Source: an uncultured Candidatus Saccharibacteria bacterium (GTDB taxonomy: Bacteria > Patescibacteriota > Minisyncoccia > Phycocordibacterales > PALSA-1337). Taken from it: a stretch of 64,000 bases of DNA. A program made the position numbers and the translations under genes. The notes below the pieces were generated by a model. That model saw nothing but the letters and a program-made list of their open reading frames with translations, did no database searches and was not told where the DNA came from. The number at the start of each line of letters is the position of its first letter. Within the stretch, counting starts at the first letter, position 1. Below, piece after piece: positions 3,085 to 52,682 of the stretch. The stretch is taken from positions 77,916 to 141,915 of the forward strand of contig CAZHHB010000001.1 of the NCBI GenBank assembly GCA_964532285.1, written 5' to 3'.

Positions 3085-3092
3085 GATCTTAT

Positions 3093-3122
3093 GCCGAAGG
3101 TACCGAGCGTAGCGAAATGTCC
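3093..3122 (+). repeat. degenerate third copy of the 29-nt upstream motif found at xerC and pcrA
   Basis: gccgaaggtaccgagcgtagcgaaatgtcc matches gtcgaagacactgagcgtagcgaagtgtta at about 24 of 30 positions. The GTGTC/GACAC palindrome is lost and no gene follows. Confidence 0.4.
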
Positions 3123-3229
3123 TATATAAACTAAAAGACATTACTATTAGAAAGTTATCCACAGTATGTCCTTTACATCATGTCCTATAAGACATAGAAT
3201 AGTTGCAGACCAGTTTGTCATCCGAGGTG

Positions 3230-3297
3230 ATTGCAGAATAATGTTCCTGAAAATATTTTCATAAAAATTATTTTATTCGGAAATATTATTCTGCAAT
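3230..3297. repeat. long imperfect hairpin in a convergent intergenic region
   Basis: The arms attgcagaataatgttcc and ggaaatattattctgcaat flank an AT-rich palindromic loop. Confidence 0.45.
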
Positions 3298-3643
3298 CGC
3301 GACAGACACAGTTCTTTCCACAACAGGGTAGGCTCAATGCTCCTCTAGTTCGTTGTTGAAGTAAGCGGAAATATTTTTTCCAATCCTTCCATTGCTTGGG
3401 AATAATGACGGTGCAACTTGTCTCAATCACATATCAGTTCTCCTCCGGAGAACAAATTAATTTTAGACAACAGTGCCCATCGTCACCCACCAAAGAAATA
3501 GGAATGGTCTGGATTGATCAGATTCGATCTTTGGATCTGACGGTTCGTTTGTTCTTTCATTTTCGCTCGACTTCGAAGGCCGCGGTATGTACTTCTTTCT
3601 GAATTACCTCTACGCGGTTTTTCTTTTACTTGAAATAAAGTAT

Positions 3644-3803
3644 CGTAAAGTGGAACATTCCATGACGACACCCCTTTCGGAGCGCTGCTGAAGACCAACT
3701 CCGCATATTAATGACACCAGCGCGAGAAGAGACGGCCATGCGAGGTGTTCCGTTGTACGAGCAGGGCCGATCGTGGGTTCGGAATGGAATGTTCCACTTT
3801 ACG
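3644..3803. repeat. MITE-like element with a perfect 20-bp terminal inverted repeat and a ~120-bp GC-rich core
   Basis: cgtaaagtggaacattccat at 3644-3663 is the exact reverse complement of atggaatgttccactttacg at 3784-3803. The right arm abuts the xthA stop codon. Confidence 0.6.
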
Positions 3804-3815
3804 GCACTATTTAAT

Positions 3816-4586: not shown

Positions 4587-4603
4587 GGGGACATTATAAC
4601 TCT

Positions 4604-5536
4604 TTATCTCTTTTTGTCATGAAACTGTTTATGGACTCTTTTTAGCTCGCTATCTGTAATGTGAGTATATATTTGAGTTGTACCAATATTTGCATGACCC
4701 AGAAGCATCTGAACAGAGCGAAGATCGGCACCATTACCGAGTAGGTCTGTCGCAAAACAATGGCGAATTATATGCGGAGTAACCTTCTTGGAAATACCGG
4801 CCTTGATAGCATAGTACTTTATGATTCTCTCAATTGAGCGGGAGGTTAGTCCCGGATCGTCATTCATTTTCCTATCATCTCCGGCAATCTTTGCGAAGAG
4901 GGAATCTCCCATATCAACACGCTTATCAAGATATCTTCTCAAGGAAGACTTGGCGGTGTCGGAAATGAAAACTACGCGAACCTTGTCACCTTTTCCGCGG
5001 ACAGAGAGTTCATCGCCATGCAAATCTATATCACGAGGCAGGGAACAGAGCTCGGAGACGCGCAGACCAGTAGAAAAGAGTAATTCCAGAATAGCTTTGT
5101 CTCGAAGAGCCTTCAATTCACTACCTTTCGGAGCTTCTAGCAATCTTTTCAATTCATCCGAGCTGATGAGGTCTATGTGCCGTTCGCCAACCTTGGCAAG
5201 CTCTATATGTTCTGGCGAGAGGGTGCTGACATTCCTTCTGGCTAGATACTTCAGGAATGCTCGAAGAGAAATGAGATAATAATTCTGTGTTTTCTTCTTT
5301 AATGTAGTACCTACATCATTGCCACCGCGATTCCTGCCTGAAGATTGACGATTGAGCCAAAGACGAAACTCGCGAACAGTGTCTGGGGTTATAGCAGAAG
5401 GACTATCGCTCTTCAAAAAACCCAAAAAGCGAGTCAGATAATGGTCATAATTCTCAACAGTTTTGAGAGATCGTCCTTTTTCTATTTCAATATACTCTAA
5501 AAATTGCTGTTTTAGGGTTTTGAGATTGTGCGACAT
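4604..5536 (-). CDS. tyrosine site-specific recombinase XerC/XerD-like
   Basis: The C-terminus HIIRHCFATDLL..GADLRSVQMLLGHANIGTTQIYTHI carries the R..H-R-Y catalytic residues. The start is trimmed to the ATG at 5536 because the upstream 14 codons are the conserved 29-nt motif read from a GTG. Confidence 0.8.
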   Translation of the reverse strand: MSHNLKTLKQQFLEYIEIEKGRSLKTVENYDHYLTRFLGFLKSDSPSAITPDTVREFRLWLNRQSSGRNRGGNDVGTTLKKKTQNYYLISLRAFLKYLARRNVSTLSPEHIELAKVGERHIDLISSDELKRLLEAPKGSELKALRDKAILELLFSTGLRVSELCSLPRDIDLHGDELSVRGKGDKVRVVFISDTAKSSLRRYLDKRVDMGDSLFAKIAGDDRKMNDDPGLTSRSIERIIKYYAIKAGISKKVTPHIIRHCFATDLLGNGADLRSVQMLLGHANIGTTQIYTHITDSELKRVHKQFHDKKR

Positions 5537-5549
5537 GGCTTTATTGTAA

Positions 5550-5578
5550 CACTTCGCTACGCTCAGTGTCTTCGACAC
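5550..5578 (-). promoter_or_regulatory. conserved 29-nt motif 13 nt upstream of the xerC start codon
   Basis: In gene orientation it reads GTGTCGAAGACACTGAGCGTAGCGAAGTG. It contains the palindrome GTGTC-N3-GACAC. A copy with one mismatch lies 14 nt upstream of pcrA. Confidence 0.5.
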
Positions 5579-5659
5579 CCAGTGACAAGGTCCCTCCTTC
5601 GCTCACTGCTACGCATGAGCTACGGCGGGCAATGCCGACCTTGCTACCCTCGAAAATAC

Positions 5660-5688
5660 TTGACAATTCCTGCAGGTATGCTAGGATA
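5660..5688 (+). promoter_or_regulatory. sigma70-like promoter, copy 1 of a duplicated promoter
   Basis: TTGACA, a 17-nt spacer ending aggtatgc, then TAGGAT. The other copy at 42219-42246 is almost identical (cttgacaa-N8-aggtatgcta). Confidence 0.5.
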
Positions 5689-5800
5689 CATGCAGAGTGA
5701 CCTATGAACAGTCTAGATTCGCCCGAAACCCCTGTGGGGATTAGGGGGATTAAGCGATAGGTCACATGGCAAAACAATGCAAAAACAAAGAAAGGCACAA

Positions 5801-5914
5801 ATGAAAGATCCTTCGAAAAAGAAACACATTTCCAAGAAAGTCGCGGAATTGAGCTGCAATCATTCGGCCTGCCACGCCGGCGCCGGCACCTTCAACGTTA
5901 TTCTTAACGTTTGA
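5801..5914 (+). CDS. possible 37-aa small protein MKDPSKKKHISKKVAELSCNHSACHAGAGTFNVILNV
   Basis: Lies downstream of the duplicated promoter, with an AAAGAAAGG Shine-Dalgarno-like sequence 7 nt before the ATG. It sits in an orphan GC-rich segment and is followed by a hairpin. It was not in the ORF track because it is shorter than 60 aa. Confidence 0.25.
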   Translation: MKDPSKKKHISKKVAELSCNHSACHAGAGTFNVILNV

Positions 5915-6041
5915 CCCCGGCTTCTCCTGGCCCAGCCCATCACCCTAAGCAAACGAAAGCGTTTGCGGGGTGGTGGGCTTTAATCTATATTCAATGGCGA
6001 ATACTTGCGTCTGCGTATCATTCATGCTAATATACTAAATC

Positions 6042-6308
6042 ATGTTAACAGCCAGACAAAAGACCAAGATTATCAAGGAAACGGGTATTCACGACAAGGA
6101 TAGCGGCTCTCCGGAAGTCCAGGTCGCCCTTTTGACCAAGAAAATTGAGGAATTGACTGGTCATCTACGCAAACATCGCAAAGACAACCACTCTCGCCGT
6201 GGTTTACTCGGTATGGTTGCAGACAGACAGACTCATTTGAATTATCTCAAGAAAAACTATCCTAGACGCTATTCTGCTATAATAAAGAAGTTGGAACTCA
6301 AGAAGTAA
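6042..6308 (+). CDS. rpsO: 30S ribosomal protein S15
   Basis: 88 aa carrying the S15 signature ...[22 protein letters not shown]...L.YL. Confidence 0.9.
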
Positions 6309-6370
6309 TCTCGCACATTACAATTCAATCATTTTTAATAAATTAATCGGTACTTAACGTACTTATTTTC

Positions 6371-6892
6371 ATGTCAGTAATCAAACATCAAGAACAGCGT
6401 GTCGGTGTTTTCATAGACGCGCAAAACTTATATCATAGTGGGAAAAACCTATATCATTCCAAAGTAAATTTCGGTCAAATAGTAAAAGATGCCGTAGATG
6501 GACGCAAACTCGTCCGTGCTATCGCTTATGTTATATCTACAGAATCAGGTGAGGAAAGCGCCTTTTTCGACGCACTCACCAAGATGGGTATAGAAACCAA
6601 GGTCAAAGATCTGCAAATATTCAGTTCCGGCGCCAAAAAAGCGGATTGGGATGTTGGTATGGCTATAGATGCTGTACGCTTGGCTCCGAAATTGGATGCC
6701 ATCATTCTCCTCACTGGCGATGGTGACTTCGTACCACTGGTGGAATATCTACAGATGAATCTCGGGTGCCAGGTTGAAGTCGTATCATTCGGCAAGTCCA
6801 CTTCAGCGAAACTCATAGAAGCTACTGACCATTTCATGGACCTGGATGAGACACCTAATAAATATTTACTTAGATCGGGAGGGAAGAAGTAG
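6371..6892 (+). CDS. NYN/LabA-like (PIN-like) domain protein
   Basis: Contains VGVFIDAQNLYHS...AIAYV....LTGDGDF.PLVEYLQ, the NYN-domain acidic motifs. It is inserted between rpsO and pnp. Confidence 0.7.
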   Translation: MSVIKHQEQRVGVFIDAQNLYHSGKNLYHSKVNFGQIVKDAVDGRKLVRAIAYVISTESGEESAFFDALTKMGIETKVKDLQIFSSGAKKADWDVGMAIDAVRLAPKLDAIILLTGDGDFVPLVEYLQMNLGCQVEVVSFGKSTSAKLIEATDHFMDLDETPNKYLLRSGGKK

Positions 6893-7099
6893 GATAGTGA
6901 ATAGATCTGATCTTGGTATAAAATTTAAGTCTATGTTACTCTGACGGTATACCAAGATCGGATCTTGATATATTACAAACTAATTTCGCCTCCAGATAGG
7001 CAGGTTTGTCCGTCTACATCATTCAATGACGGATCAAGTCTGAAATCTGAGGGCGAAAACGGTTGACCAAGATCGGATCTTGGTCAAACCGAAAATATT
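6893..7099 (+). promoter_or_regulatory. pnp leader carrying three related palindromes (ccaagatcNgatcttgg)
   Basis: The perfect 25-nt palindrome ttgaccaagatcggatcttggtcaa lies at 7065-7089. Partial copies lie at about 6902-6918 and 6948-6968. Confidence 0.45.
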
Positions 7100-9241
7100 A
7101 TGAATAAAAAAGAATACTCTATTGAGGTCGGTGGCAAGACTTTGTCTGCTGAATTCAATGATCTCGCAGATCAAACCAATGGTTCTGTGATGGTTCGTTA
7201 TGGCAACACCATAGTCATGGCCACAGCCGTCATGAGTAAGGAATTAAAAGAAGGTGATTTTTTTCCATTAACAGTTGATTACGAGGAGCGTTTTTATGCT
7301 ACTGGGAAAATATTGGGCTCAAGATTTATGCGCAGGGAAGGACGACCGTCCACTGACGCCATCCTTTCTGGACGTATTGTGGATCGCACCATTCGCCCTT
7401 TATTCAATCAGAAAATGCGCAATGAAGTCCAAATAATATTGACCACTATCTCTGTGGATCAAGATGATCCTGATGTAGTCTCTGTCATTGCTGCGTCACT
7501 CGCTTTGGGAACTTCCGATATTCCATGGAATGGTCCTGTTTCTGCTGTACGCATGGCAAAAGATGGCCAATGGATCATCAATCCCAACTTCAAAGCTAGG
7601 GAAGAAGCGGGTATAAGCATGGAAATGGTCGCTTGCGGTAAAGATGGCATGATAAATATGATAGAGGTTGGTAGCAAAGAAATCAGCGAAGACACTATGA
7701 ACGAAGCTTTGTCTGAGGCTTCAAAAGAGATAGAGAAAATCCAGAAATGGCAATCAAAAATAATCGCGGAAATAGGTAAGAAAAAAGTAAAAGTGGAAAT
7801 AGCAGAACCTACTCCTGGGACACAAGAACTTTTCGATAAAGAAATAAAGCCGAAACTTGCAAAATATATCATGAGCAACACTCCTGGTCACAAGAGTATC
7901 AATGAAATATCAAAAATGTGGACGGATTTATTCGTAGAGAAATTCCCAGAAGGTAATGTCTTGCTTGCTATGGAAATCTTTGAAGACGCAGTGAATGAGC
8001 TCTTACATAGTGAAGCTATAGACAACGATAAGCGTGCCGATGGCCGAACAATGGATGAGATCCGCCCCCTATTCGCCAAAGCTGGTGGAATATCACCGAT
8101 ATTGCACGGCTCAGGAACTTTCTACAGAGGAGGAACTCATATTCTATCCGTCTTAACTCTTGGAAGTCCCGGTGATGCTCAGGTTATAGATGCTTTGATC
8201 GTCCAAGAAGACAAGAGATTCATGCATCATTACAATTTTCCACCATTCTCTACCGGCGAGACCGGTCGTGTAGGCAATACAAACAGGAGGATGATAGGTC
8301 ATGGAGCTTTGGCGGAAAAAGCCCTGCTTCCAGTCATTCCGGAAAAAGCAAAATTCCCATACACTATCCGCCTAGTATCTGAAGCGATGGCCTCCAACGG
8401 TTCAACTTCTATGGGTTCCGTCTGTGGTTCAACCATAGCTCTAATGGACGGAGGTGTCCCCATCAAAGCCCCTGTCGCAGGTATTGCTTCTGGTCTCATG
8501 ATGCGTAGTCCAAAAGAATACAAAGTCCTCACCGACATCCAAGGTCCAGAAGATCATCATGGCGATATGGATTTCAAAGTGGCCGGTACCCGCGAAGGCA
8601 TAACAGCTGTTCAAATGGATGTGAAAGTTGGCGGAATACCACTCAAAATATTGGCCGAGGCTTTCGAAAAAGCCAAGTCAGCCCGTTTCCGCATCTTGGA
8701 TGTTATAGAGAAAGAGATACCGAAGCCACGAGCAAATATTTCTCCTAGTGCTCCCGAGATAATAATGATGAGTATCAAGCCTGATCAGATAGGTCTCGTC
8801 ATCGGTAGTGGAGGAAAGACGATAAATGAAATCCGCGATGTCACAGGAGTGGATGATATCACAATAGAAGATGATGGATCCATCTTCATCACAGGCAAAG
8901 AGGGTAGTGCAGCCAAAGCCAAGGAAATTATCTTCAATATGACACGAGAATATCTGCCGGGAGAGAAATTTGAAGGTGAAGTAGTTCGCCTCATGGACTT
9001 TGGAGCCTTCGTGAAGATTGGTCCGAACGCTGAAGGACTTGTTCATGTCTCCGAGATAGCACCATTCCGTGTAGAAAGAGTTGAGACTTATCTGAAAGAA
9101 GGGGACAAAGTTCCTGTGGCGGTAAAAGAAATAGATGATAAGGGCAGGATCAATCTTTCTATTAAGAATGCCAAACCTGACTTTTTCACAAAGAAGGAAG
9201 AAACTCCAAAACCTAGGACGGAATTCAAGAAGAGGTTTTAG
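7100..9241 (+). CDS. pnp: polynucleotide phosphorylase
   Basis: 713 aa with two RNase PH domains and KH and S1 tails. Typical motifs are GRxxDE.R.L and FGAFV.I. Confidence 0.9.
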   Translation: MNKKEYSIEVGGKTLSAEFNDLADQTNGSVMVRYGNTIVMATAVMSKELKEGDFFPLTVDYEERFYATGKILGSRFMRREGRPSTDAILSGRIVDRTIRPLFNQKMRNEVQIILTTISVDQDDPDVVSVIAASLALGTSDIPWNGPVSAVRMAKDGQWIINPNFKAREEAGISMEMVACGKDGMINMIEVGSKEISEDTMNEALSEASKEIEKIQKWQSKIIAEIGKKKVKVEIAEPTPGTQELFDKEIKPKLAKYIMSNTPGHKSINEISKMWTDLFVEKFPEGNVLLAMEIFEDAVNELLHSEAIDNDKRADGRTMDEIRPLFAKAGGISPILHGSGTFYRGGTHILSVLTLGSPGDAQVIDALIVQEDKRFMHHYNFPPFSTGETGRVGNTNRRMIGHGALAEKALLPVIPEKAKFPYTIRLVSEAMASNGSTSMGSVCGSTIALMDGGVPIKAPVAGIASGLMMRSPKEYKVLTDIQGPEDHHGDMDFKVAGTREGITAVQMDVKVGGIPLKILAEAFEKAKSARFRILDVIEKEIPKPRANISPSAPEIIMMSIKPDQIGLVIGSGGKTINEIRDVTGVDDITIEDDGSIFITGKEGSAAKAKEIIFNMTREYLPGEKFEGEVVRLMDFGAFVKIGPNAEGLVHVSEIAPFRVERVETYLKEGDKVPVAVKEIDDKGRINLSIKNAKPDFFTKKEETPKPRTEFKKRF

Positions 9242-9248
9242 AGGGGTG

Positions 9249-9327
9249 TTATATTCGCTTCGCTCATATATCGTCGGCGCTCGGATTCTGTGAAAGCGAG
9301 CTTTCACGAATCCTCGCTTGACGCTAT
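9249..9327 (+). promoter_or_regulatory. conserved ~80-nt leader element, copy A, upstream of the membrane-protein gene
   Basis: ttatattcgcttcgctcatatatcg, then gcgctcgg, a hairpin at 9283-9313, then cctcgcttgacgctata, ending 11 nt before the ATG at 9338. It is homologous to 36984-37061 upstream of PBP1A, and the hairpin stems show compensatory changes between the two copies. Confidence 0.5.
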
Positions 9328-9337
9328 AATAATCGTA

Positions 9338-10867
9338 ATGGATGAAGACTCAACAATAATTGAACCTCAGCAAAAACAGGAAGTTCCTCAAACTGACCAA
9401 CCGGGGCAAGTCTCTTCTAGACCTGGTAGTGGAAATGTGTTTGAAATAACACCCAACCTAGATATTTCCCCGGTCAAGGAAACAATCGAGCCACCGAAAA
9501 CAAACTCAGGAACCATCACGGAAAACGAAGTTCCTCGAGACCAACTATACAATCAACTGCTCCAAGAATTGGGAAATGGATCTGAGGGGCCGAGTGAGAC
9601 ACCGGCAAATCCTTTTGTGGCCGCTATTACAGAGAATGTATCTGGCGAAAAGATTGTCCACAACGAACAAAAAAGACCTCTGGAAACAACTGCCGGGCCA
9701 AATTCTAGCTCCTTGGTAAGATCAATGCGGACCTATGAAAGCGATATCGCCGAAGTAATGTCGCGTGGACACACATCGACCGCTTCAATGATAATCGCCA
9801 AAAATCAAAAGGAGGATATGCTGAAGAGGGCTTCCTTCAGTAGATTCGCCGACAACAAACCAGCGACAATAGAGATCCCGTCAGCAAGAGGGGTGGGGAA
9901 AAACGCAATGGAAGGCGCACCAACGGAGAAGAAGATCGAGATGGCACCAGCGATGCAAGTGCCGCCAGTAACGGATGATTCTGTCCGACAATCACTTCAT
10001 ATATTTAGGAAATCATTTATCGTCATAATAAGTCTAATCTTGATAGGGGGAGGTGTCGCGGCGGCATATTATCTGTACAAAGTGAGTCCGCTTAGTACAT
10101 CGAAAAACCCAGCAACAAAAACAAATACCCCACAAACAACAACTTCGTCTACAAAATCACCGACAGGAGTGATACAGGTAGACATGCAGACTATTTTTCC
10201 GGTCGACGGTAAAAACGCAAGTGCTATATTGTCAGGATTGAGAACAGAGATAGACAAAAATCAACCCATGAATAGCATTCGAGAAATTATCCCGACCGAA
10301 ACCACCAACGGAACTGTGGTCCGTCTATCAGCGACAACCATGCTATCACGCATGGACATCACTCCACCTGATATTTTGACAAGGTCACTCTTACCATCAT
10401 GGATGTTGGGTGTGTATGCAGACAACAACGAGGAAAAGAATACTTTTGTCATCGTCACGAACAATTTCTTCCAAAACACTTTCGCCGGCATATTACAATG
10501 GGAGAGTGTGATGCCTGATGAATTAAAACAATTCCTATATGATCCGAGACAGCTGGAGGATATCATAACGGATACACAAACTGACCAGGGACAAGCCACT
10601 GTGTCTTCATCGACAACATCCACAGTGAGTTCAACGACAACATCGACGACTACGGAACCGATCTCTGTCCGCTCTTACTTCACGATACGAGGTCAATTCA
10701 AAGACAGAATAGTCAAAAATAGAGATGTGCGGGAATTCATAACCGATGATGGACAAATCCTGTTCTTATATTCATTCATCGACAACAAAAAACTCATAAT
10801 AGCCACGAGTGAATCCGTGATAAGCGAAATATTGTCACGACTTGAAAAGCAGACTTTTGTAAGATAG
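9338..10867 (+). CDS. hypothetical membrane-anchored protein with a Thr/Ser-rich linker
   Basis: One TM helix (IVIISLILIGGGVAAAYYLY) and a low-complexity T/S-rich stretch. No family was recognised. The start is trimmed to the Met after the leader element. Confidence 0.35.
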   Translation: MDEDSTIIEPQQKQEVPQTDQPGQVSSRPGSGNVFEITPNLDISPVKETIEPPKTNSGTITENEVPRDQLYNQLLQELGNGSEGPSETPANPFVAAITENVSGEKIVHNEQKRPLETTAGPNSSSLVRSMRTYESDIAEVMSRGHTSTASMIIAKNQKEDMLKRASFSRFADNKPATIEIPSARGVGKNAMEGAPTEKKIEMAPAMQVPPVTDDSVRQSLHIFRKSFIVIISLILIGGGVAAAYYLYKVSPLSTSKNPATKTNTPQTTTSSTKSPTGVIQVDMQTIFPVDGKNASAILSGLRTEIDKNQPMNSIREIIPTETTNGTVVRLSATTMLSRMDITPPDILTRSLLPSWMLGVYADNNEEKNTFVIVTNNFFQNTFAGILQWESVMPDELKQFLYDPRQLEDIITDTQTDQGQATVSSSTTSTVSSTTTSTTTEPISVRSYFTIRGQFKDRIVKNRDVREFITDDGQILFLYSFIDNKKLIIATSESVISEILSRLEKQTFVR

Positions 10868-10876
10868 AATTGTGAT

Positions 10877-11239
10877 ATGAACAAAAAAGACACCGAACCC
10901 TTCAAGAAGAAACTAGAAGCAGAAAAAGCTGAGCTAGAAAAGGAGCTCTCTTTGGTCGGACACAAAAACTCTAGCAACCCAAACGGCTGGGAAGCCACAA
11001 CCAGCGACTTAGAAGTTGATTCTGCCGACGAAAATGAAGTCGCAGACAAATTCGAAGAGATGGAAGGGAATACCGGCATTATAGACAAGCTAGAGAAAGA
11101 ACTCAAAGAGATCGACTCAGCCTTAGATCGTATCGCGGAAGGCAAGTACGGCTTGTGCGAATTTTGCGGTAAACCCATAGAGCCAGAACGCCTAGAGGCA
11201 AACCCTTCTGCTCGTATTTCTATAAAACACAAACACTAG
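10877..11239 (+). CDS. DksA/TraR-family protein (C4-type zinc-finger region, degenerate)
   Basis: Coiled-coil N-terminus followed by ..GKYGLCEFCGKPIEPERLEANPSAR, resembling the DksA/TraR C-terminus. The second CxxC is missing. Confidence 0.55.
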   Translation: MNKKDTEPFKKKLEAEKAELEKELSLVGHKNSSNPNGWEATTSDLEVDSADENEVADKFEEMEGNTGIIDKLEKELKEIDSALDRIAEGKYGLCEFCGKPIEPERLEANPSARISIKHKH

Positions 11240-12759
11240 ATAAGTTTCCTCCTGTATTGTAGGGCTTCCAAAATGTGTTCTTTTTTTATGTGAGATATCC
11301 CCGCAAGATCAGCAATAGTTCTTCCAACCTTGATCACTCTATGGAAGGCTCTACCTGATAATTCAAACTTCTTGGCTGAAGTTGCGAGTAGATCACGGGC
11401 ATCATCATCAATAATAATATATTTTTCTATATCGTCAGCACTCATTTCTCCATTGAAACATTTTTTAATTCCATTCATTTTGAATCTTTGCAGTTGAATA
11501 TCTCTGGCTTTTATCACTCTATTTCTAATCACGCTAGAATTTTCCTCTAAGGAATTCTTGTTGGCCAATTTATCATAATCTACTTTATTTACATTCAACC
11601 ACAGATCGAAACGGTCAGTAATGGGTCCGGAAATCTTTCTGCGATATGACTCCATTGTCTGATTCGTACAAGTGCACCCATTACCCTTACCCTTACCACA
11701 AGGACAAGGATTGGTAGATGCCATCAATATACATTGTGCTGGAAATGTAATGACTCCACGAACTCGTGAGATGGTGACTATTCTATCCTCGAGAGGTTGA
11801 CGCAAGGCTTCTATGACACTCCTATCAAATTCCGAAAATTCATCCATAAATAAAACTCCACGATGGGCCAGCGTTATCTCGCCTGGTTTCGGAACACTGC
11901 CACCACCGACTATAGAAGGGTATGAGGCCGTATGGTGAGGCGAACGAAATGGTGGTTTGGATATCAGGGAATTACCCAGAGTCCGAGCGGCAGAATGTAT
12001 ACCGGTCACCTCAACTGATTGTTCATATGAGAGGGCTGGGAGTATAGAAGCAAAAGCCTGAGCTAACATAGTTTTACCAGTACCTGGTGGACCACACATG
12101 ATGAGATTATGGGCTCCAGCAGCAGCTATCTCCAATCCACGCTTGGCAGTTTCATTGCCACGCACAGAACGCATATCTATACCTGAATTTTCATTCTCAA
12201 TATCAATAAATTCTCTAAATGAAACCGGGGTCAAAATATTTGTCCCAGACAGATGCTCAATGATCTGGCGCAGGGAGGACACTGCAAACACCTTTATACC
12301 ACGGGCAAGCGAGGCTTCGTGAATATTATCTTCTGGTACGAAAACTTCTGTAAATCCCATGCTCGATGCTTGGCATAATATGGGCAATAGTCCCGGAACT
12401 TTACGGACCTTGCCTTCAAGAGATAGTTCGCCGAGGAATAACTTGCCATCTTGATCGAAAACGATTTCATCTGCCGCAGATAGATATGTGAGGGCCATGG
12501 CGAGTTCAAAAGATGGACCTTCTTTGCGTATATCAGCAGGTGCGAGCGATACGACAACTTTTTGATTCTTTTGCTTTGGTGAAGTGTAACCGGTATTTTT
12601 AATGGCTGCCGAAATACGATCCTTTGATTCTTCCACGGCTCTATCTCCGAGACCGACAATAGAAAAAGCATGTAGACCGTTGGAGATGTCTACCTCTATA
12701 GTAATAATCAAAGACTGTAACCCTATCAACTGTGCGCTGTATGATTTTGCAATACTCAT
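11236..12759 (-). CDS. comM: YifB/ComM family Mg-chelatase-like AAA+ ATPase
   Basis: Lon-like N-domain, Walker A LIMCGPPGTGKTMLA, a sensor region and a C-terminal region. The start is trimmed to MSIAKSYS (ATG at 12757-12759). Confidence 0.8.
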   Translation of the reverse strand: MSIAKSYSAQLIGLQSLIITIEVDISNGLHAFSIVGLGDRAVEESKDRISAAIKNTGYTSPKQKNQKVVVSLAPADIRKEGPSFELAMALTYLSAADEIVFDQDGKLFLGELSLEGKVRKVPGLLPILCQASSMGFTEVFVPEDNIHEASLARGIKVFAVSSLRQIIEHLSGTNILTPVSFREFIDIENENSGIDMRSVRGNETAKRGLEIAAAGAHNLIMCGPPGTGKTMLAQAFASILPALSYEQSVEVTGIHSAARTLGNSLISKPPFRSPHHTASYPSIVGGGSVPKPGEITLAHRGVLFMDEFSEFDRSVIEALRQPLEDRIVTISRVRGVITFPAQCILMASTNPCPCGKGKGNGCTCTNQTMESYRRKISGPITDRFDLWLNVNKVDYDKLANKNSLEENSSVIRNRVIKARDIQLQRFKMNGIKKCFNGEMSADDIEKYIIIDDDARDLLATSAKKFELSGRAFHRVIKVGRTIADLAGISHIKKEHILEALQYRRKLI

Positions 12760-12823
12760 ACACCCATCATACTCACGAAAGATAAATTCCTGATAAAAAA
12801 GAGATAAATTCCTGATAAAATTC

Positions 12824-13906
12824 CTAAAAAGTATTCTTTGCCCCACGAATCTCAAAGTGTACATGCGGTCCAGTGGTTAAACCTGTCATGCCTATATAAC
12901 CAATAGTTTGTCCCTGACCAACACTCTGACCAACAGTTACAATCCCCTTGGACAGGTGAGAATACAGAGTCTGCGTACCATTTGGATGTGAAATAACTAT
13001 ATAATTGCCATATCCGCCATTCCAGCCACCATTCATCTTTGCAATAATGACTATACCGGAAGCCGAAGCACGCAAAGGTGTGCCGACAGGTGCGGCTATA
13101 TCAATACCGTTGTGTCCATGTAATCCCTGGGATTTTACACCACCCAAAACAGGACGAATGAAATATCCTGGCAAAGAAGACCAATTTGAACCCTCAATCA
13201 AAGTGCTACTTGGTAACTTTGTATTGTTTTGCGGTTGAGGTGTTGATACTTCGGCATTTGGAATGAGTATGGTCTGACCGATAATAAGTTTTGATGATGA
13301 CGTTAGATCATTATAATTCAAAATATCATCAACATCAGCATTGTATTTCAAAGCTATTCCTTTGATAGTGTCGCCACTCTTGATGACATGCTTGATGCCT
13401 GAGATTGGCAGAATAATAAGTACTTGTCCTGCTTTTAGGGTAGATTTGCCAGTCAGATCATTGGCCCACAATACTGTATTGACCGACACACCAAACATTT
13501 TTGCAACACCAGAGAGCGTGTCTCCTTGACGAACGGTATATGTACTGATAGTAGCATTGCCAGTATCAGTACTAGTAGCATTGGAAATGGCGATATCAGC
13601 AATCAAAGTCTCTCCTCCATCAACTGGTATGGTATCAAAGGATTTGTCAGGATTCGGATCAATATTGGCTGCTGCAGCCAAAAGACTTATGTTTTGGGAA
13701 TTTGGATACCGACCGGTGGATTTGGAGCTTGCTGAGGCTTGTTCGGCTCCCAAAATAAGAGAAGACATAAAAGAAACGAGACCTGCATGGGCGGTCTCAG
13801 AGAAATTAAATATGGTAATAAAAGAGAACACACAGACGATTGTCCATGTGATTAGACGCTTAAATAGCTTGCTATTTTGGTTTTCTTTTGAGTTGTATAA
13901 TTGCAT
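12824..13906 (-). CDS. LysM-domain M23 family metallopeptidase
   Basis: Two LysM repeats (YTVRQGDTLSGVA.., HVIKSGDTIKGIA..) and an M23 core (HNGIDIAAPVGTP...HVHFE). There is an N-terminal TM helix. The ATG at 13906 is preferred over the TTG at 13933. Confidence 0.8.
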   Translation of the reverse strand: MQLYNSKENQNSKLFKRLITWTIVCVFSFITIFNFSETAHAGLVSFMSSLILGAEQASASSKSTGRYPNSQNISLLAAAANIDPNPDKSFDTIPVDGGETLIADIAISNATSTDTGNATISTYTVRQGDTLSGVAKMFGVSVNTVLWANDLTGKSTLKAGQVLIILPISGIKHVIKSGDTIKGIALKYNADVDDILNYNDLTSSSKLIIGQTILIPNAEVSTPQPQNNTKLPSSTLIEGSNWSSLPGYFIRPVLGGVKSQGLHGHNGIDIAAPVGTPLRASASGIVIIAKMNGGWNGGYGNYIVISHPNGTQTLYSHLSKGIVTVGQSVGQGQTIGYIGMTGLTTGPHVHFEIRGAKNTF

Positions 13907-14117
13907 AACAGATATAGTCTCACCGCAAGTCAATCGTGTTGGTCATCCAGGTGTTTTTTGTAGTTCACCTTGTAATTATATGGCTCTATATAGCCCTAAA
14001 ATATAAATAGCCTACAAGGCTATGCTCTTAGAGTAGCAGGTGACATTTTATTGTCAATGAAAGCTATACACAGCTTATTAACTTGCTATTAAGTCAACAA
14101 ATGTGGCGCAATTGCAT

Positions 14118-14146
14118 GTGTCGAAGACACTGAGCGGAGCGAAGTG
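14118..14146 (+). promoter_or_regulatory. conserved 29-nt motif 14 nt upstream of the pcrA start codon
   Basis: GTGTCGAAGACACTGAGCGGAGCGAAGTG differs at one position from the copy in front of xerC. The orientation and spacing to the ATG are the same. Confidence 0.5.
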
Positions 14147-14159
14147 CTAAACTACCGTG

Positions 14160-16094
14160 ATGACCACCTTAAATGAAGCGCAGGAAAGGGCAGTAACGAC
14201 CACCGATGGACCGGTTTTGATTGTAGCTGGGGCGGGAGCAGGTAAAACGAGAGTTATCACGCACAGAATATTGAATTTAATCAAAAAGGGTGCTGAACCG
14301 CGTTCCATATTGGCGATAACATTCACCAACAAATCCGCCAAGGAAATGCGGGATAGGGTTTCAGCCTTGCTGACTGATGATAAAGGCCTCAATCTGCCTA
14401 TTTCCATGACAAGCAGACCGTTCGTAAGCACATTCCATGCTTTGGGTGTCCACATTATACGAGAAAATGCTGGACTCTTGGGACTGACACGACATTTCAC
14501 AATATACGATCGTTCAGATTCGAAAAAAGTCATCAAAGAGTCAATGATCCAGTCGTCAGTTGATCCGAAGAAGTTTGAACCTGGAACTGTGTTGAACATG
14601 ATCTCAAGAGCCAAGGGTGAGGGATTTGGCAGGCTAGAATACGCAGATCATGCCAAAGACTTTACCGAGGAGATGGTGGCTGGTATTTGGGAGAAGTATG
14701 AGGCGATATTGGCAAAAGAAAAAGCTCTTGATTTCGATGATTTGCTCTTGAAAACTGCTCAACTCCTGGGAAGGAATGAGGCTGTGCGAAAACATTATAG
14801 TTCCACATGGAAATACATCCATGTCGATGAATACCAAGATACAAATCGTGTTCAATATCAGATAGTAAAATACTTGGCAGAGGAACATCGGAATATCTGC
14901 GTCGTGGGAGATGCTGATCAAAACATATACAGCTGGAGAGGAGCTACTATAGAAAACATATTGAATTTTGAGAAGGATTATCCAGAAGCTACTGTTATCA
15001 CACTAGAAAAAAACTACAGATCAACAAAAACCATACTTGCGGCGGCGAATAATGTCATAGAAAAGAATCGTATGCGCAAAAAGAAAACTTTGTATACAGA
15101 CAATGATCATGGAGATAAAATTTCACTCTTGGTTTCGTATACCGATGCAGATGAAGCGCGTATGATAGCAGACACGGCTCGCGAAATAATCGAAAAGGGG
15201 ACTTCTCCCAGAGAAATTGCCATCTTGTATAGAACAAATTTCCAATCTCGTATCTTGGAAGAGGCATTTATCAAGAAAAATATCCCTTACCAGATGCTCG
15301 GTACGCGTTTCTTTGAAAGAAAAGAAGTGAAGGATGTTTTGTCGTACATTCGAGCGGCTTTGAACAGAGATTCCATGGCAGATATAGGCAGAATCATCAA
15401 TGTGCCGACGCGTGGCATAGGCAAAGCGACGATTGCGAAGGTTATGTCTGGGGCAGAGGCGTCATTGCCGCCAGCAATGAAATTAAAAATCTCTAATTTC
15501 TGGAAACTGCTTGATGATATAAGTAAAGAAATCTTGGAAAAGAAACCTTCAGAGTCAGTAAGATTCGTCATCCGAGAAACGGGTATTGAGAAACAATTAC
15601 TAGAAGGGGACAGTGAGGATGAAGAGAGGCTGTTAAATATTCGTGAACTAGTTTCTGTGGCAACACAATACGATCACCTGAAGCCAGAAGAAGGCATTGA
15701 ATCCCTACTAGCGAATGCAGCTCTGGCGACAGATCAGGATGATTTACAGAAAAATGAAGACGCTGTGAAACTGATGACGGTTCACGCATCGAAAGGACTT
15801 GAGTTTGAATATGTTTTTATCGCTGGATTGGAACAGGAACTATTTCCATTCAAACATCTGGATGAAGAAAATATAAACGAAGGCGAAGAGGAGGAGGAAC
15901 GCCGTTTGTTCTATGTGGCTTTGACTAGAGCGAAAAAGAAAGTATATTTAAGTTACGCTATCATTCGTACGATATATGGGGCTCAAAAAGTCAGTGCTCC
16001 GTCGGAATTCATTGAGGACATAGAAAAGAGGTTGATAGAGGATCATGTTCCAGAGAAGCCAAGTGGTGCAAAAGCGTTATTTATTGATTTTTAA
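14160..16094 (+). CDS. pcrA: UvrD/PcrA/Rep-family ATP-dependent DNA helicase
   Basis: Walker A GAGAGKT, the DEYQDTN motif and helicase motifs III-VI. Confidence 0.85.
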   Translation: MTTLNEAQERAVTTTDGPVLIVAGAGAGKTRVITHRILNLIKKGAEPRSILAITFTNKSAKEMRDRVSALLTDDKGLNLPISMTSRPFVSTFHALGVHIIRENAGLLGLTRHFTIYDRSDSKKVIKESMIQSSVDPKKFEPGTVLNMISRAKGEGFGRLEYADHAKDFTEEMVAGIWEKYEAILAKEKALDFDDLLLKTAQLLGRNEAVRKHYSSTWKYIHVDEYQDTNRVQYQIVKYLAEEHRNICVVGDADQNIYSWRGATIENILNFEKDYPEATVITLEKNYRSTKTILAAANNVIEKNRMRKKKTLYTDNDHGDKISLLVSYTDADEARMIADTAREIIEKGTSPREIAILYRTNFQSRILEEAFIKKNIPYQMLGTRFFERKEVKDVLSYIRAALNRDSMADIGRIINVPTRGIGKATIAKVMSGAEASLPPAMKLKISNFWKLLDDISKEILEKKPSESVRFVIRETGIEKQLLEGDSEDEERLLNIRELVSVATQYDHLKPEEGIESLLANAALATDQDDLQKNEDAVKLMTVHASKGLEFEYVFIAGLEQELFPFKHLDEENINEGEEEEERRLFYVALTRAKKKVYLSYAIIRTIYGAQKVSAPSEFIEDIEKRLIEDHVPEKPSGAKALFIDF

Positions 16095-16158: not shown

Positions 16159-16935
16159 ATGAAACTGCAACCGAAAAAATCGTTAGGACAACACTTCTTA
16201 AATTCCAAACATGTACTTGATCAGATTATTTCGGCTGGAGAGATCAAGAGTGGTGAAAGTGTGTTGGAAATAGGCCCTGGTACGGGTATTTTGACAACTG
16301 CATTATTGGAAGCGGGCGCAAAAGTCATTGCTGTAGAAAAAGATAGACTGGCATGTGAATTACTAAAGAGTAAGTTTTCAAGACAAATTGCCGACAAACA
16401 ACTTGAACTGATTGAGGGAGATATTCTAGATGAAAAAACTTTCAACTCTTACGCACTAATCGCCAATATCCCTTATTACATCACCGGCGCTATCTTAGAA
16501 AAATTCCTAGAGTATGAACCTCGACCCAACCGTATGGTTTTATTGGTACAAAAAGAGGTTGCGGACCGCATCGTGGCTTTGAATGGGAAGGAAAGTGTTC
16601 TGTCCATATCTGTAAAAGCTTTTGGTACGCCGAAAATAATCGCCAAAGTACCACCAGGAGCATTTACACCACCACCAACAGTTGATTCAGCGATACTTTC
16701 AATCAAAAACATCAACGACAATCATTTTGTAAATAAATTAACCGGCAAAAAGGCTGATGTATCTGAGTTTTTCAAAATAGTCAAAGCGGGATTCGCCCAT
16801 AAGCGTAAATACCTGATCCGTAATCTTGAGTCTGTAATCGCGCCAGAGAAACTCTCACAAATCTGGCAAGAAAATAAGTTTGATCCGAAGATTAGGGCTG
16901 AAGATCTCAAGTTAGAACAATGGTTTTGTTTTTGA
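16159..16935 (+). CDS. rsmA: 16S rRNA (adenine1518/1519-N6)-dimethyltransferase
   Basis: Contains KSLGQHFL, the GPG.G.LT SAM motif and NIPY. The start is trimmed to the ATG at 16159. Ends with a TGA stop. Confidence 0.85.
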   Translation: MKLQPKKSLGQHFLNSKHVLDQIISAGEIKSGESVLEIGPGTGILTTALLEAGAKVIAVEKDRLACELLKSKFSRQIADKQLELIEGDILDEKTFNSYALIANIPYYITGAILEKFLEYEPRPNRMVLLVQKEVADRIVALNGKESVLSISVKAFGTPKIIAKVPPGAFTPPPTVDSAILSIKNINDNHFVNKLTGKKADVSEFFKIVKAGFAHKRKYLIRNLESVIAPEKLSQIWQENKFDPKIRAEDLKLEQWFCF

Positions 16936-16940
16936 GCCCA

Positions 16941-17096
16941 GCAAATATGTTTTTGTGACAGTCTGCGGTACTCGCTCCGTGAAATTGCTAGGTAAAAGGC
17001 TCAGGAATTGTAAACAATTCCAACGACATTCGCCTTTTACCAAGCAATTTCCACTGCGCTCAGACATGTCCTCGACTGTCACAAAAACATATTTGC
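16941..17096. repeat. structured repeat element, copy 1: 23-bp perfect outer inverted repeat around a 111-bp conserved core
   Basis: The outer arms gcaaatatgtttttgtgacagtc and gactgtcacaaaaacatatttgc are exact reverse complements. The core at 16964-17074 matches 37530-37640 at 110 of 111 positions. The core folds as a long stem (gaaattgctaggtaaaaggc / gccttttaccaagcaatttc) around the hairpin ggaattgtaaacaattcc. Confidence 0.7.
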
Positions 17097-17106
17097 CGAG
17101 CTATAA

Positions 17107-17451: not shown

Positions 17452-17522
17452 GCGTTAATTGTAGCACATACTATCCCCATTTCTAAGCCATAAAATAACC
17501 CTTCTCTGATATAATTACTAGC

Positions 17523-25746: not shown

Positions 25747-25765
25747 AAAGTGCTACAATTTACTC

Positions 25766-36972: not shown

Positions 36973-36983
36973 TAGAAACTAGT

Positions 36984-37061
36984 ATAGCGCCAAGCGAGGA
37001 TTTATGAAAGTTTATTTTCATAAAATCCGAGCGCAGGCGATATATGAGCGAAGCGAATATG
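36984..37061 (-). promoter_or_regulatory. conserved ~80-nt leader element, copy B, upstream of PBP1A
   Basis: The reverse complement matches copy A block by block: ttatattcgcttcgctcatatatcg .. gcgctcggatt-hairpin-aatcctcgcttgGcgctata. The hairpin stems differ by paired compensatory substitutions. It ends about 12 nt before the PBP1A ATG. Confidence 0.5.
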
Positions 37062-37064
37062 ACA

Positions 37065-37403
37065 CTACTGCTCCCATTTGTCACCAAAAGGGTTGAGTTC
37101 GTCGTCATCCAAACTAACTTCTTCCGATGTGGTTTCGTCAGTTTCTTCTTCTGGGATGAGGGGGTCAACTTCGGGTTTTTCGTCAGTACCAATGACTGGC
37201 TCTGGGAGATCGAGCTCCAAAGGTTTCTTGGATTTGGTTGGTGGAATATCCATGACTTCTTCCGTCTCGGTATGAGATTCCTCCACACGTGTCTCACTTT
37301 TTGTTTTTTTGTTTTGAGCGTGTTTTGTTGGCATACACTTAGTTTTTACATTGCTAAATTTAGTGCGTGCATATGTTGTAACAAAGACGCAATCCTTTTG
37401 CAA
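37065..37403 (-). CDS. acidic hypothetical protein
   Basis: K-rich N-terminus and a D/E-rich C-terminal half. No family recognised. Confidence 0.3.
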   Translation of the reverse strand: MQKDCVFVTTYARTKFSNVKTKCMPTKHAQNKKTKSETRVEESHTETEEVMDIPPTKSKKPLELDLPEPVIGTDEKPEVDPLIPEEETDETTSEEVSLDDDELNPFGDKWEQ

Positions 37404-37500
37404 GAAAGGGGAGTTGGGGATAATGATGAAGTTTCGAAGCGGGAAACGATATTACATTCCGAACCCACGATCGGCCTTGCTCGCGCCACAGAGTAGCTCA

Positions 37501-37670
37501 CAAGGCGAATAATAGTTCCTCTCGCCAGCCTGCGGTACTCGCTCCGTGAAATTGCTAGGTAAAAGGCTCAGGAATTGTAAACAATTCCAACGACATTCGC
37601 CTTTTACCAAGCAATTTCTACTGCGCTCAGACATGTCCTCGGCTGTTTCGAGGAACTATTATTCGCCTTG
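37501..37670. repeat. structured repeat element, copy 2: 21-bp perfect outer inverted repeat around the same 111-bp core
   Basis: The outer arms caaggcgaataatagttcctc and gaggaactattattcgccttg are exact reverse complements. The core at 37530-37640 matches copy 1 with one mismatch. It lies just downstream of ruvC. Confidence 0.7.
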
Positions 37671-44624: not shown

Positions 44625-44705
44625 TTCACTCACCATTGTAACATTCTGTGAACACGACCGAATAGGGGAAAATATGTGTATAACCATACATGATACAATA
44701 CCGTT

Positions 44706-52215: not shown

Positions 52216-52682
52216 AGAATACCCCAGTACTTAACAGCTGTTCCTTTGCGTAAAACTAAGTTATAACACATTCAAATCGGCTTTTGTATAGGTAACACCA
52301 AGTTTGTATGTTTTCCATAGAATATCCATAGTTTTCTAATAACTCGTCTTACCCGACATATATCATAGCTCTATCATAGGTCTTTCCAGTAACATTCATG
52401 GTTTTTCTATCTTTAAATCTTAGGTTTTCTAAGGTTCTCTAAGTTATTCACAAATAATCATTTGGTGCTATGATACGGATACAACTGAATATCGTGAAAG
52501 TAGCCTAAACTAGTAAGTAATTATTAGCATGGCAAAAAATCCCATGGAAGATACTGAACCCCACGTTCAGCGCTCTTCCATGGGTTATACCGGGAAACTG
52601 GTATAGAAGCCGTAAGGCTTTGCTGGCGTGGGGCTTAGTGTTTATACACTGACCCCCTACCATAAACTGTGGGTCTTTTTGC
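52216..52682. repeat. iteron-like direct repeats and a nested hairpin (candidate element origin)
   Basis: Repeated ccatagaata / catag units and ttctaaggttctctaag. A hairpin cccatggaaga..(ctgaac cccacg ttcag)..tcttccatggg lies at 52541-52585. Confidence 0.35.

Follow-up and report, generated by a model that had tools for sequence, protein, structure and literature searches.

Two near-identical motif copies precede xerC and pcrA

The window analysed here is a 64,000-nt stretch of contig CAZHHB010000001.1 (assembly GCA_964532285.1), which derives from an uncultured Candidatus Saccharibacteria bacterium of the Candidate Phyla Radiation (CPR). Within this window, a 29-nt motif, GTGTCGAAGACACTGAGCG(T/G)AGCGAAGTG, lies immediately upstream of two genes, xerC (encoding a XerC-like tyrosine recombinase) and pcrA (encoding a UvrD-family helicase), and a decayed third copy follows the gene for the CCA-adding enzyme. 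An initial annotation, made from the letters of the window, had drawn attention to the motif and had suggested that it is a shared operator of DNA recombination or repair genes, in the manner of an SOS regulon, or else a shared promoter or leader element. The copies, their internal structures, and the promoter elements next to them are as follows.

5550..5578, minus strand: motif copy A, GTGTCGAAGACACTGAGCGTAGCGAAGTG, at about -42 to -14 relative to the xerC ATG
5566-5578, minus strand: copy A hairpin 1, GTGTC-GAA-GACAC
5549-5569, minus strand: copy A hairpin 2, ACACT / GA-GC-GTA-GC-GA / AGTGT, the minimum free energy (MFE) structure
5554-5564, minus strand: copy A core, GAGCGTAGCGA
5534..5551, minus strand: xerC extended -10 and start, comprising TG (5550-5551), T, TACAAT (5543-5548), a 6-nt spacer, and ATG (5534-5536)
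14118..14146, plus strand: motif copy B, GTGTCGAAGACACTGAGCGGAGCGAAGTG, at about -42 to -14 relative to the pcrA ATG
14118-14130, plus strand: copy B hairpin 1
14132-14142, plus strand: copy B core, GAGCGGAGCGA, with the closing stem CACT/AGTG
14145..14162, plus strand: pcrA extended -10 and start, comprising TG (14145-14146), C, TAAACT (14148-14153), a 6-nt spacer, and ATG (14160-14162)
3092..3122, plus strand: decayed copy, 24/29 identical at 3092-3120, directly past the stop codon of the CCA-adding enzyme gene

Copies A and B were found where the initial annotation had placed them, share 28 of 29 positions, and match the degenerate 29-mer without mismatches, while 100 dinucleotide-preserving shuffles of the window yielded no match, even with three mismatches allowed. 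Both copies are internal to contigs in independent Logan assemblies of the same organism (L001 and L002) and are therefore not assembly artefacts. The perfect 5-3-5 palindrome reported for the first 13 nt of the motif is present as GTGTC-GAA-GACAC. The motif ends 13 nt before the ATG at xerC (TTACAATAAAGCC), as had been described, and the distance at pcrA (CTAAACTACCGTG) is likewise 13 nt rather than the 14 nt given originally. A GTG at position 5578 is in frame with xerC, so that a mechanical open reading frame (ORF) call grows from 310 to 324 aa, which is the 14-codon inflation that had been suspected; the start in public gene calls is the ATG at 5536. The orphan copy that had been noted was also recovered. 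It has lost the stem that closes the core, and retains its first hairpin in the form TGCC-GAA-GGTA, in which one change is compensatory and one pair is G-T. Downstream of it comes a -10-like TATATA, with no ORF thereafter. The 64-kb window thus holds two copies plus one decayed copy.

The motif abuts the extended -10 boxes of predicted leaderless genes

In a crude gene map of the window with 57 genes, 18 carry a TANNNT hexamer that precedes the ATG by 5-8 nt, compared with 4.2 +/- 2.1 at random positions, and eight of these 18 genes have TG at the extended -10 position. A Shine-Dalgarno-like 4-mer precedes only 3/57 genes. The hexamers before ATGs are TATAAT, TACAAT, or TAGAAT, often with TG (for instance at 4587-4602, 17452-17467, 25750-25765, and 44690-44705), and the overall pattern indicates that the source genome is largely leaderless. 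Because of this, the motif is predicted to cover approximately -42 to -14 of two extended -10 promoters, as counted from the inferred start sites.

The xerC promoter reads ...GAAG-TG-T-TACAAT-AAAGCC-ATG and the pcrA promoter reads ...GAAG-TG-C-TAAACT-ACCGTG-ATG. The 13 nt past the motif are accordingly one base, a -10 hexamer, and a 6-nt spacer, and the final two bases of the motif are the TG of the extended -10 at both genes. Each gene has the arrangement of a leaderless sigma-70 extended -10 promoter (TGnTAnnnT 5-8 nt before the start, with no Shine-Dalgarno sequence), and the xerC mRNA is predicted to be leaderless. A consensus promoter scan at xerC returned AAGACA-18-TACAAT with TG (9/12), in which AAGACA is inside the motif; the repeat thereby provides a -35-like hexamer at 18-nt spacing. 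The earlier suggestion of a shared promoter element holds in a positional sense, in that at both leaderless genes the motif adjoins the -10 box, and does so in one register.

Orthologous promoters in relatives lack the motif

Five syntenic loci from relatives (L090-L094) were compared, each following the order xth-xerC-S15-NYN-...-LysM-pcrA-rsmA. PcrA orthologues are numerous in Paceibacterota at 70-81% identity, and those of the five syntenic relatives are 79-81% identical. The motif was not found upstream of xerC or pcrA in any of the five loci, nor was the exact core found anywhere within them; core matches with one mismatch occur only at other positions, away from both promoters. The relatives nevertheless have -10 boxes at these genes: TGtTACAAT (L090), cTACAAT (L092), and TGcTAAACT (L093) at xerC, and TGTAAACT (L090), TGtTAAACT (L092), TGTAAGAT (L093), and TGtTAAGAT (L094) at pcrA, such that the pcrA TAAACT is kept in the motif-free orthologues of L090 and L092. 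Since the five relatives keep gene-specific -10 boxes without the motif, sequence comparison indicates that the motif is a lineage-specific insertion and not a conserved operator. The same comparison qualifies the initial statement that the xerC and pcrA copies diverge immediately past the motif. Weak similarity does extend beyond the 29-mer, to 37 nt, but because motif-free orthologues carry the same -10 boxes, the extension is each gene's ancestral -10 box and not part of the repeat. No wider homology was found between the xerC and pcrA upstream regions, or between these and the fetched loci, with only a 29-32-mer in common.

At xerC, the motif is part of a longer insertion.

5552..5652, minus strand: xerC-proximal insertion, about 101 nt here versus 14 nt in L090, between the shared TTGTCAAGTATTTT and TGTTACAAT; junctions read by eye

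Copy A is the promoter-proximal end of this insertion, and the remainder includes a second, degenerate core (AGTGAGCGAAGGAGG) within a CAAGGTC/GACCTTG inverted repeat. Upstream of pcrA, the sequence between a conserved block (TATTGTCAATGAAAGCTATACACAGCT...AATGTGG) and the -10 box is variable. The window has the 29-mer there, L093 has 31 nt, L094 (L094:9870-9960) has a long perfect palindrome (cacgaatccacgaatgcacacgaatacc...), and L092 (L092:9880-9990) has direct repeats of ttttcaaaaagaatgtt. These differences indicate that the site just upstream of these promoters is a hotspot for differing insertions.

Two further observations concern this region. L090, L092, and L093 retain, ahead of their pcrA genes, the intergenic block TATTGTCAATGAAAGCTATACACAGCT that the window has at 14047-14075 and the AATGTGG beyond it, and L094 aligns only to the downstream ..GTCAA..AATGTG.. 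portion; the block may be a divergent promoter of the LysM-peptidase gene or a real regulatory site. Additionally, the ComM (Mg-chelatase-like) gene at 11236-12864 is on the minus strand here and on the plus strand in L090-L093; the L094 gene is split and has a DUF3800 ORF as a neighbour.

The conserved core is a predicted hairpin with covarying flanks

Covariation was examined in 23 occurrences of the core that had not been selected by a search pattern, including that of an 86-nt repeat in the window. The flanks of the core GAGCGNAGCGA are complementary (e.g. TCATTCT/AGAATC, CATCCC/GGGAC, ACACG/CGTG, ATATA/TATAT, and GGTGG/CCACC), with a mean stem of 4.0 pairs versus 2.24 +/- 0.26 when flanks were shuffled among occurrences (n=23). 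A recount with 12-nt flanks (22 occurrences) gave Watson-Crick pairs at positions 1-4 in 16-18 of the 22, with at least three pair types at each position. The middle base of the loop is free (A in 34, C in 25, T in 17, and G in 11 of 87 distinct occurrences). The core reads GA-GCG(N)AGC-GA and contains the GCGNAGC sequence of the DNA mini-hairpins. Taken as a hairpin, the module consists of a stem, tandem G.A/A.G pairs (both in a Y-GA-R context), a G-C and a C-G pair, and a GNA triloop, and MFE folds reproduce the stem, the 2x2 GA, the GC-GC, and the triloop. The Bacteroidota and Acidobacteriota forms have an additional second tandem GA, followed by an outer covarying stem. The GTGTC-GAA-GACAC palindrome, a C-GAA-G triloop hairpin, is peculiar to the Paceibacterota form; in the window copies it competes with the closing stem CACT/AGTG for CAC.

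The mini-hairpin DNA d(GCGAAGC) of Hirao and colleagues is extraordinarily stable, with a melting temperature of 76.5 C, and r(GCGAAAGC) melts at 39 C (PMC13037366). Mismatches in the stems, which can distinguish RNA from DNA, were too few to be informative and showed no bias of G-T over A-C. A hairpin that would form at the DNA level is favoured.

The motif family crosses phyla and adjoins GIY-YIG nuclease genes

One genome per GTDB species, in a collection that does not include the source genome of the window, was scanned with the 21-nt pattern GACACYGAGCGNAGCGAARTG. This gave 73 loci compared with approximately 4.3 expected by chance, a census that need not reflect true abundance because the patterns used for the family scans fix part of the stem. 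About eight of the 73 matches (with C at Y or A at R) are in apparent coding sequence of Halomonas, Reyranella, Thalassospira, and others, several inside long ORFs, and look like chance matches. The remainder are intergenic, lie within longer repeats specific to their lineages, and are frequently close to a contig end. They come from taxa that include Acidobacteriota, Bacteroidota, Chloroflexota, Gemmatimonadota, Saccharibacteria, Paceibacterota, Omnitrophota, Rickettsiales, and Syntrophorhabdus. Some metagenome-assembled genomes are multi-copy, with about 12 loci in Ardenticatenales MGR_bin47 (Chloroflexota) and six in Bacteroidota C13 bin 24. The motif neighbours in these other genomes are unrelated genes, rRNA, tRNA, and GIY-YIG genes. 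Near-identical non-coding DNA of 20-30 nt that is common to Acidobacteriota, Bacteroidota, Chloroflexota, CPR, and others is unusual. No motif match was obtained in the plasmid collection or among viral contigs, and the phage collection gave two marginal Rhizobium phage matches (E = 0.6). Whether run at gathering or at permissive thresholds, Rfam searches covering the window together with 28 loci that carry the motif returned only tRNA, rRNA, LOOT, Acido-Lenti-1 (elsewhere), and noise. A literature search by sequence strings, by GIY-YIG plus repeats, and by Bpu plus bacteria found no description of the bacterial family.

A metagenome scan with GAAGACACTGAGCGNAGCGAAGTG produced 14 CPR-type loci of two kinds. 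In the first, from Paceibacterota, the 29-mer of the window, either unaltered or with one substitution, begins 2-3 nt past a TTTACAAT box in the rRNA leader. With the 16S rRNA gene identified by Rfam, the exact 29-mer is 62 nt upstream of it in L056 and L077, and the variant is 116 nt upstream in L028. Copy B and these leaders share 31-32 nt at approximately 97% identity, with the free loop base as the sole mismatch. Each GTDB genome with a copy in the rRNA leader had only that one match in the scan. In the leader of L087, AGAGTTTGATCC is present downstream of the motif. Additionally, TGCTGTTTTTTGTTTTG follows the 29-mer in the leaders of L056, L077, L080, L082, L083, and L087; we take this to resemble the boxA antitermination sequence, which would put the hairpin at a boxB-like position in the pre-rRNA leader.

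In the second kind, the motif closes a structured spacer of about 75 nt that starts directly after a tRNA (Gln or Met where called), and a GIY-YIG ORF of 80-88 aa lies within 11-71 nt past the motif. In the Saccharibacteria loci L013 and L020, the motif is followed by GTG-A-TACAAT, again upstream of a GIY-YIG gene. When ORFs lying up to 250 nt from the motif were compared all against all, GIY-YIG emerged as the only recurrent real protein family (13 loci from CPR, Acidobacteriota, and Syntrophorhabdus, confirmed as PF01541); other ORF clusters are translations of the repeat itself or chance coding matches. In the reverse approach, homologues of one CPR GIY-YIG protein were located on contigs, and all four distinct CPR loci inspected had a tRNA or tRNA-like 3' end, a motif-like hairpin (CTGAG...CGAAG), and then the ATG. 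The exact core is present in one of these four loci, with variant loops in the others.

The CPR cassette, consisting of tRNA-Gln or tRNA-Met, the hairpin spacer of about 75 nt, and a GIY-YIG ORF of 80-90 aa, was seen in L013, L044, L076, L081, L085, L095, L105, L111, and others. L105 has two tandem GIY-YIG ORFs with a tRNA-like sequence before each, and L054 has an undetected tRNA-like 3' end, which hints at duplication of tRNA ends.

A probable hairpin repeat at a permissive promoter-upstream site

Overall, we consider that the two 29-mers are copies of a hairpin repeat resembling repetitive extragenic palindromic (REP) sequences and miniature inverted-repeat transposable elements (MITEs), located in a permissive site upstream of promoters, and that they are not a dedicated operator (probability of roughly 0.6). 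The hairpin would form in single-stranded or extruded DNA and be recognised by a mobilising or copying machinery, for which the associated GIY-YIG nuclease is the candidate; the repeat is itself putatively mobile. Copies may survive upstream of extended -10 promoters because such promoters need no specific -35, so that the site would tolerate insertions, and because the terminal GTG of the repeat would recreate the TG of the extended -10. The effect of the motif on transcription of xerC and pcrA is probably small or modest. For the window, the result is that promoters of this CPR genome appear to be extended -10 and leaderless, with repeats piling up directly upstream of them; the SOS-like regulon is removed as a false lead, and the start codon of xerC is corrected.

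Several observations weigh against this interpretation. The two copies match at 28 of 29 positions and stand at exactly equal distances from the -10 box and the ATG, a coincidence that random insertion would rarely produce; selection for a preserved TG, or a target preference, is proposed as the explanation. Moreover, xerC, pcrA, and the motif-preceded GIY-YIG genes of relatives all act on DNA, as the members of a small regulon would. Neither target-site duplications nor terminal inverted repeats were found at the window copies, and no GIY-YIG gene or remnant was found in the window (tblastn, best E = 0.3). Finally, nearest-neighbour folding energies are no better than those of shuffles (z -0.7 to -1.3), in models that lack terms for the motif. 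These energies are not significant, and the hairpin rests on covariation and on literature values.

A broader and more speculative proposal, which we regard as tentative and rather doubtful as a whole, is that the GAGCGNAGCGA rod hairpin serves as recognition module for a class of selfish DNA that is undescribed and spans phyla. Stand-alone, structure-specific GIY-YIG nucleases (Slx1/YhbQ-like) would mobilise or maintain it by acting on mini-hairpins in extruded or single-stranded DNA. The module would also have seeded the Bpu repeats of cycad and ginkgo mitochondria, and in CPR it would have been domesticated at the rRNA operon's 5' end and at sites close to promoters, such as those of xerC and pcrA. 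If true, this would constitute a new repeat/nuclease partnership comparable to that of REPs and their associated transposases, would account for numerous spurious ORFs and broken contigs in metagenome assemblies, and might provide a plant mitochondrial repeat family with a bacterial origin.

Comparison with known systems

The closest known kind of element is the REP/REPIN with its REP-associated tyrosine transposase (RAYT). REPs, bacterial interspersed mosaic elements (BIMEs), and the REP doublets termed REPINs are short (about 30-40 nt), imperfect extragenic palindromes that are repeated within genomes and show compensatory stem changes, all of which is also found for the motif. They are considered to function as hairpins in single-stranded DNA, and each is associated with a single small gene for a nuclease or transposase. 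In contrast to the motif, in which the hairpin tip is conserved across phyla, REPs are species- or genus-specific and have a GTAG/CGTC head, which was absent from the aligned motif copies. The partner also differs, being a Y1/HUH RAYT for REPs and a GIY-YIG nuclease for the motif, and the copy number in the window is very low by comparison.

The neisserial Correia elements are promoter-carrying MITEs, i.e. small non-autonomous repeats that land beside genes and can supply promoter hexamers. The motif is similar in being a small repeat that adjoins genes, but its -10 boxes are ancestral to each gene and not borne by the repeat. It also departs from MITEs in its unit of only 29-31 nt, in the lack of a duplicated flank at the xerC, pcrA, and rRNA-leader junctions, and in the lack of terminal inverted repeats. 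Free-standing GIY-YIG homing cassettes and Slx1/YhbQ-type nucleases offer a further likeness, in that an ORF of 80-120 aa stands by a conserved DNA site in the vicinity of tRNA or rRNA genes, and the contigs concerned frequently end at the repeat. Unlike homing cassettes, the motif loci have no intron or intein context, and the window has no GIY-YIG gene.

The literature search gave a single sequence match, the Bpu repeat found in the mitochondria of Cycas and Ginkgo (Chaw et al. 2008, cited in PMC8297867), which has the 36-nt consensus AAGGTTATCCCTTTCCTGAGCGTAGCGAAGGGAAGG, about 500 copies, and AAGG terminal direct repeats. It has CTGAGCGTAGCGAAG in common with copy A (15/15 nt), and its core is closed by an 8-bp stem, CCTTTCCT/AGGGAAGG, with one G-T pair, in the same stem-loop layout. 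Bpu is, however, a eukaryotic organelle repeat for which PMC8297867 reports no link to bacteria or GIY-YIG proteins. It is characterised by a 36-nt unit with AAGG ends and a Bpu10I site, of which the motif has only the 15-nt core and the stem-loop layout; the AAGG ends are absent. Judging from this resemblance, a bacterial origin of the Bpu repeat is possible.

Mini-hairpins of the form d(GCGNAGC) occur at the phage G4 origin, at RSF1010 ssiA, and at the promoters of the phage N4 virion RNA polymerase (PMC13037366). The core of the motif has the same GCGNAGC with a free middle base, and its first palindrome, a 5-bp stem with a GAA loop, has the geometry of the N4 early promoter hairpins (PMC13037366). 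Those elements are priming or phage-polymerase signals, whereas the motif resembles them in sequence and hairpin geometry. In N4 promoters, the hairpin loop is centred near -11, and the loops of the motif, at about -23 and -36 relative to +1, do not match this position.

Alternative explanations

The SOS-like operator of the initial annotation is not supported by comparison with other genomes. A likeness to LexA/SOS sites does exist, as a palindrome-containing site overlaps the promoters of a UvrD-family helicase and a recombinase. LexA boxes have the consensus CGAACN4GTTCG (the Cheo box) or CTGTN8ACAG (E. coli), and direct reading of both 29-mers agrees with the initial annotation that neither is matched. 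Furthermore, the motif is absent from the orthologous promoters of the five relatives, it is a cross-phylum repeat beside unrelated genes, with no apparent enrichment at repair genes in the other genomes, the copies of relatives are placed within rRNA leaders or separate a tRNA from a GIY-YIG gene, and the core flanks covary as a hairpin stem would. The initial annotation had itself named a fragment of a repeated mobile sequence as what would undermine its proposal, and this is essentially what turned up. A lineage-specific version is that the motif is a co-opted cis-regulatory site, in which a DNA-binding protein of the lineage recognises GTGTC-N3-GACAC, or the hairpins once extruded, and controls xerC and pcrA together here, and GIY-YIG genes and the rRNA operon in relatives. 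This would account for the 28/29 identity of the two copies and for their common register over the spacer and the -35 region, a usual site of repressor action. The motif of rRNA leaders begins 2-3 nt past the -10 box, another classical operator position, in L013 and L020 the motif again precedes GTG-N-TACAAT and a GIY-YIG gene, and the three downstream gene classes (xerC, pcrA, and GIY-YIG) all act on DNA. Genomes with a copy in the rRNA leader have no other copy in the scan, however, no candidate regulator was found, and the pairing of a part conserved across phyla with covarying flanks fits a nucleic-acid structure rather than a protein operator. Together with the motif-free promoters of relatives and the lack of a LexA box, this makes a co-opted operator unlikely.

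Explanations at the level of RNA or of recombination are less probable still. The motif could be a transcribed leader, processing site, or terminator, for example a boxB-like hairpin before the boxA-like TGCTGTTTTTTG of pre-rRNA that is reused at xerC and pcrA. The position downstream of the TTTACAAT -10 box in Paceibacterota rRNA operons, which probably places it at the 5' end of the pre-rRNA, is consistent with this, as are its position directly after tRNA genes in CPR and the RNA MFE structure of the xerC copy, which is the same hairpin (-7.7 kcal/mol). At xerC and pcrA, however, a conserved -10 box with a 6-nt spacer separates the motif from the ATG, so that the motif should not be in the mRNA, and neither site has a co-directional upstream gene. 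The stems show no preference for G-T pairs over A-C mismatches, no Rfam family matched, and the GCGNAGC hairpin is far less stable as RNA (PMC13037366). An RNA-level role is therefore plausible for the rRNA and tRNA contexts but not for the leaderless xerC and pcrA, and as an account of the motif as a whole it is improbable. It is harder still to credit that the two copies are recombination sites through which the adjacent XerC-like recombinase, or homologous recombination, inverts the 8.5-kb segment between them (5579-14117). They are indeed inverted repeats 8539 nt apart, one of them adjoining a tyrosine recombinase gene, and ComM inside the segment is inverted relative to the relatives. In contrast, the housekeeping genes of the segment (S15 and polynucleotide phosphorylase, PNPase) have the same order and orientation as in the relatives, xerC is a conserved syntenic housekeeping copy, and the motif is unlike dif or attC in architecture and is single-copy in relatives.

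Other identities for the motif and its surroundings were considered and rejected. An integron attC or a dif site for XerC does not agree with xerC being a syntenic housekeeping gene in all relatives, which lack the motif. A clustered regularly interspaced short palindromic repeat (CRISPR) was rejected on account of irregular copy spacings (53 and 195-235 nt) and flanks that are themselves repeated. On reading, a hammerhead core (CUGANGA...GAAA) does not fit. A tRNA-like reading of the xerC-proximal insertion (GCCCGCCGTAGCTCA...) was also dismissed, as ARAGORN and Rfam call nothing there.

Other repeats and features of the window

The motif core TGAGCGNAGCGAA is also found within both copies of an 86-nt structured repeat.

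9246..9331, minus strand: 86-nt structured repeat, core TGAGCGAAGCGAA at 9254-9266, closed by ATATA/TATAT
36980..37065, plus strand: second copy of the 86-nt repeat, 85% identical, core at 37045-37057

The other strand of each copy adjoins the -10 box of a predicted leaderless gene, TATAAT for the gene at 9338-10867 and TATACT for that at 34438-36972 (minus strand). The long hairpin of the repeat is kept by compensatory changes (GGATTCTGTGAAAG.. versus GGATTTTATGAAAA..). The copy at 9246, directly after the PNPase stop codon, may double as a terminator. A degenerate third copy was observed near 40607-40633.

A further repeat of 121 nt is present at 16959-17079 and 37526-37646 with 98% identity. 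Its two copies are centred within two differing perfect inverted repeats of 29-30 nt (16935-17102 and 37501-37670), so either palindromes are its insertion sites or it depends on an outer stem that covaries. At its 5' end (CGAGGACATGTCTGAGCGCAGTGGAA) the repeat is similar to the motif.

The genes for the CCA-adding enzyme and xth are separated by a 730-nt gap (3085-3815) with no convincing ORF and no Rfam match. It contains inverted repeats (3639-3680 / 3767-3808 and 3229-3298) and a 56-nt segment that is 80% complementary to 37451-37506. This gap was rejected as oriC, as only one perfect DnaA box was found there (3155-3163). Elsewhere, the intergenic region at 434-569 has four DnaA-box-like 9-mers with one mismatch each in 136 nt, and the cumulative GC skew has its minimum at about 4-6 kb; together, these may mark the vicinity of the replication origin. 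Lastly, a full-length LOOT RNA (RF03000; 98 bits) is encoded at 52502-52621, and the low-GC stretch around it (approximately 0.355, 50-58 kb) may be an island.

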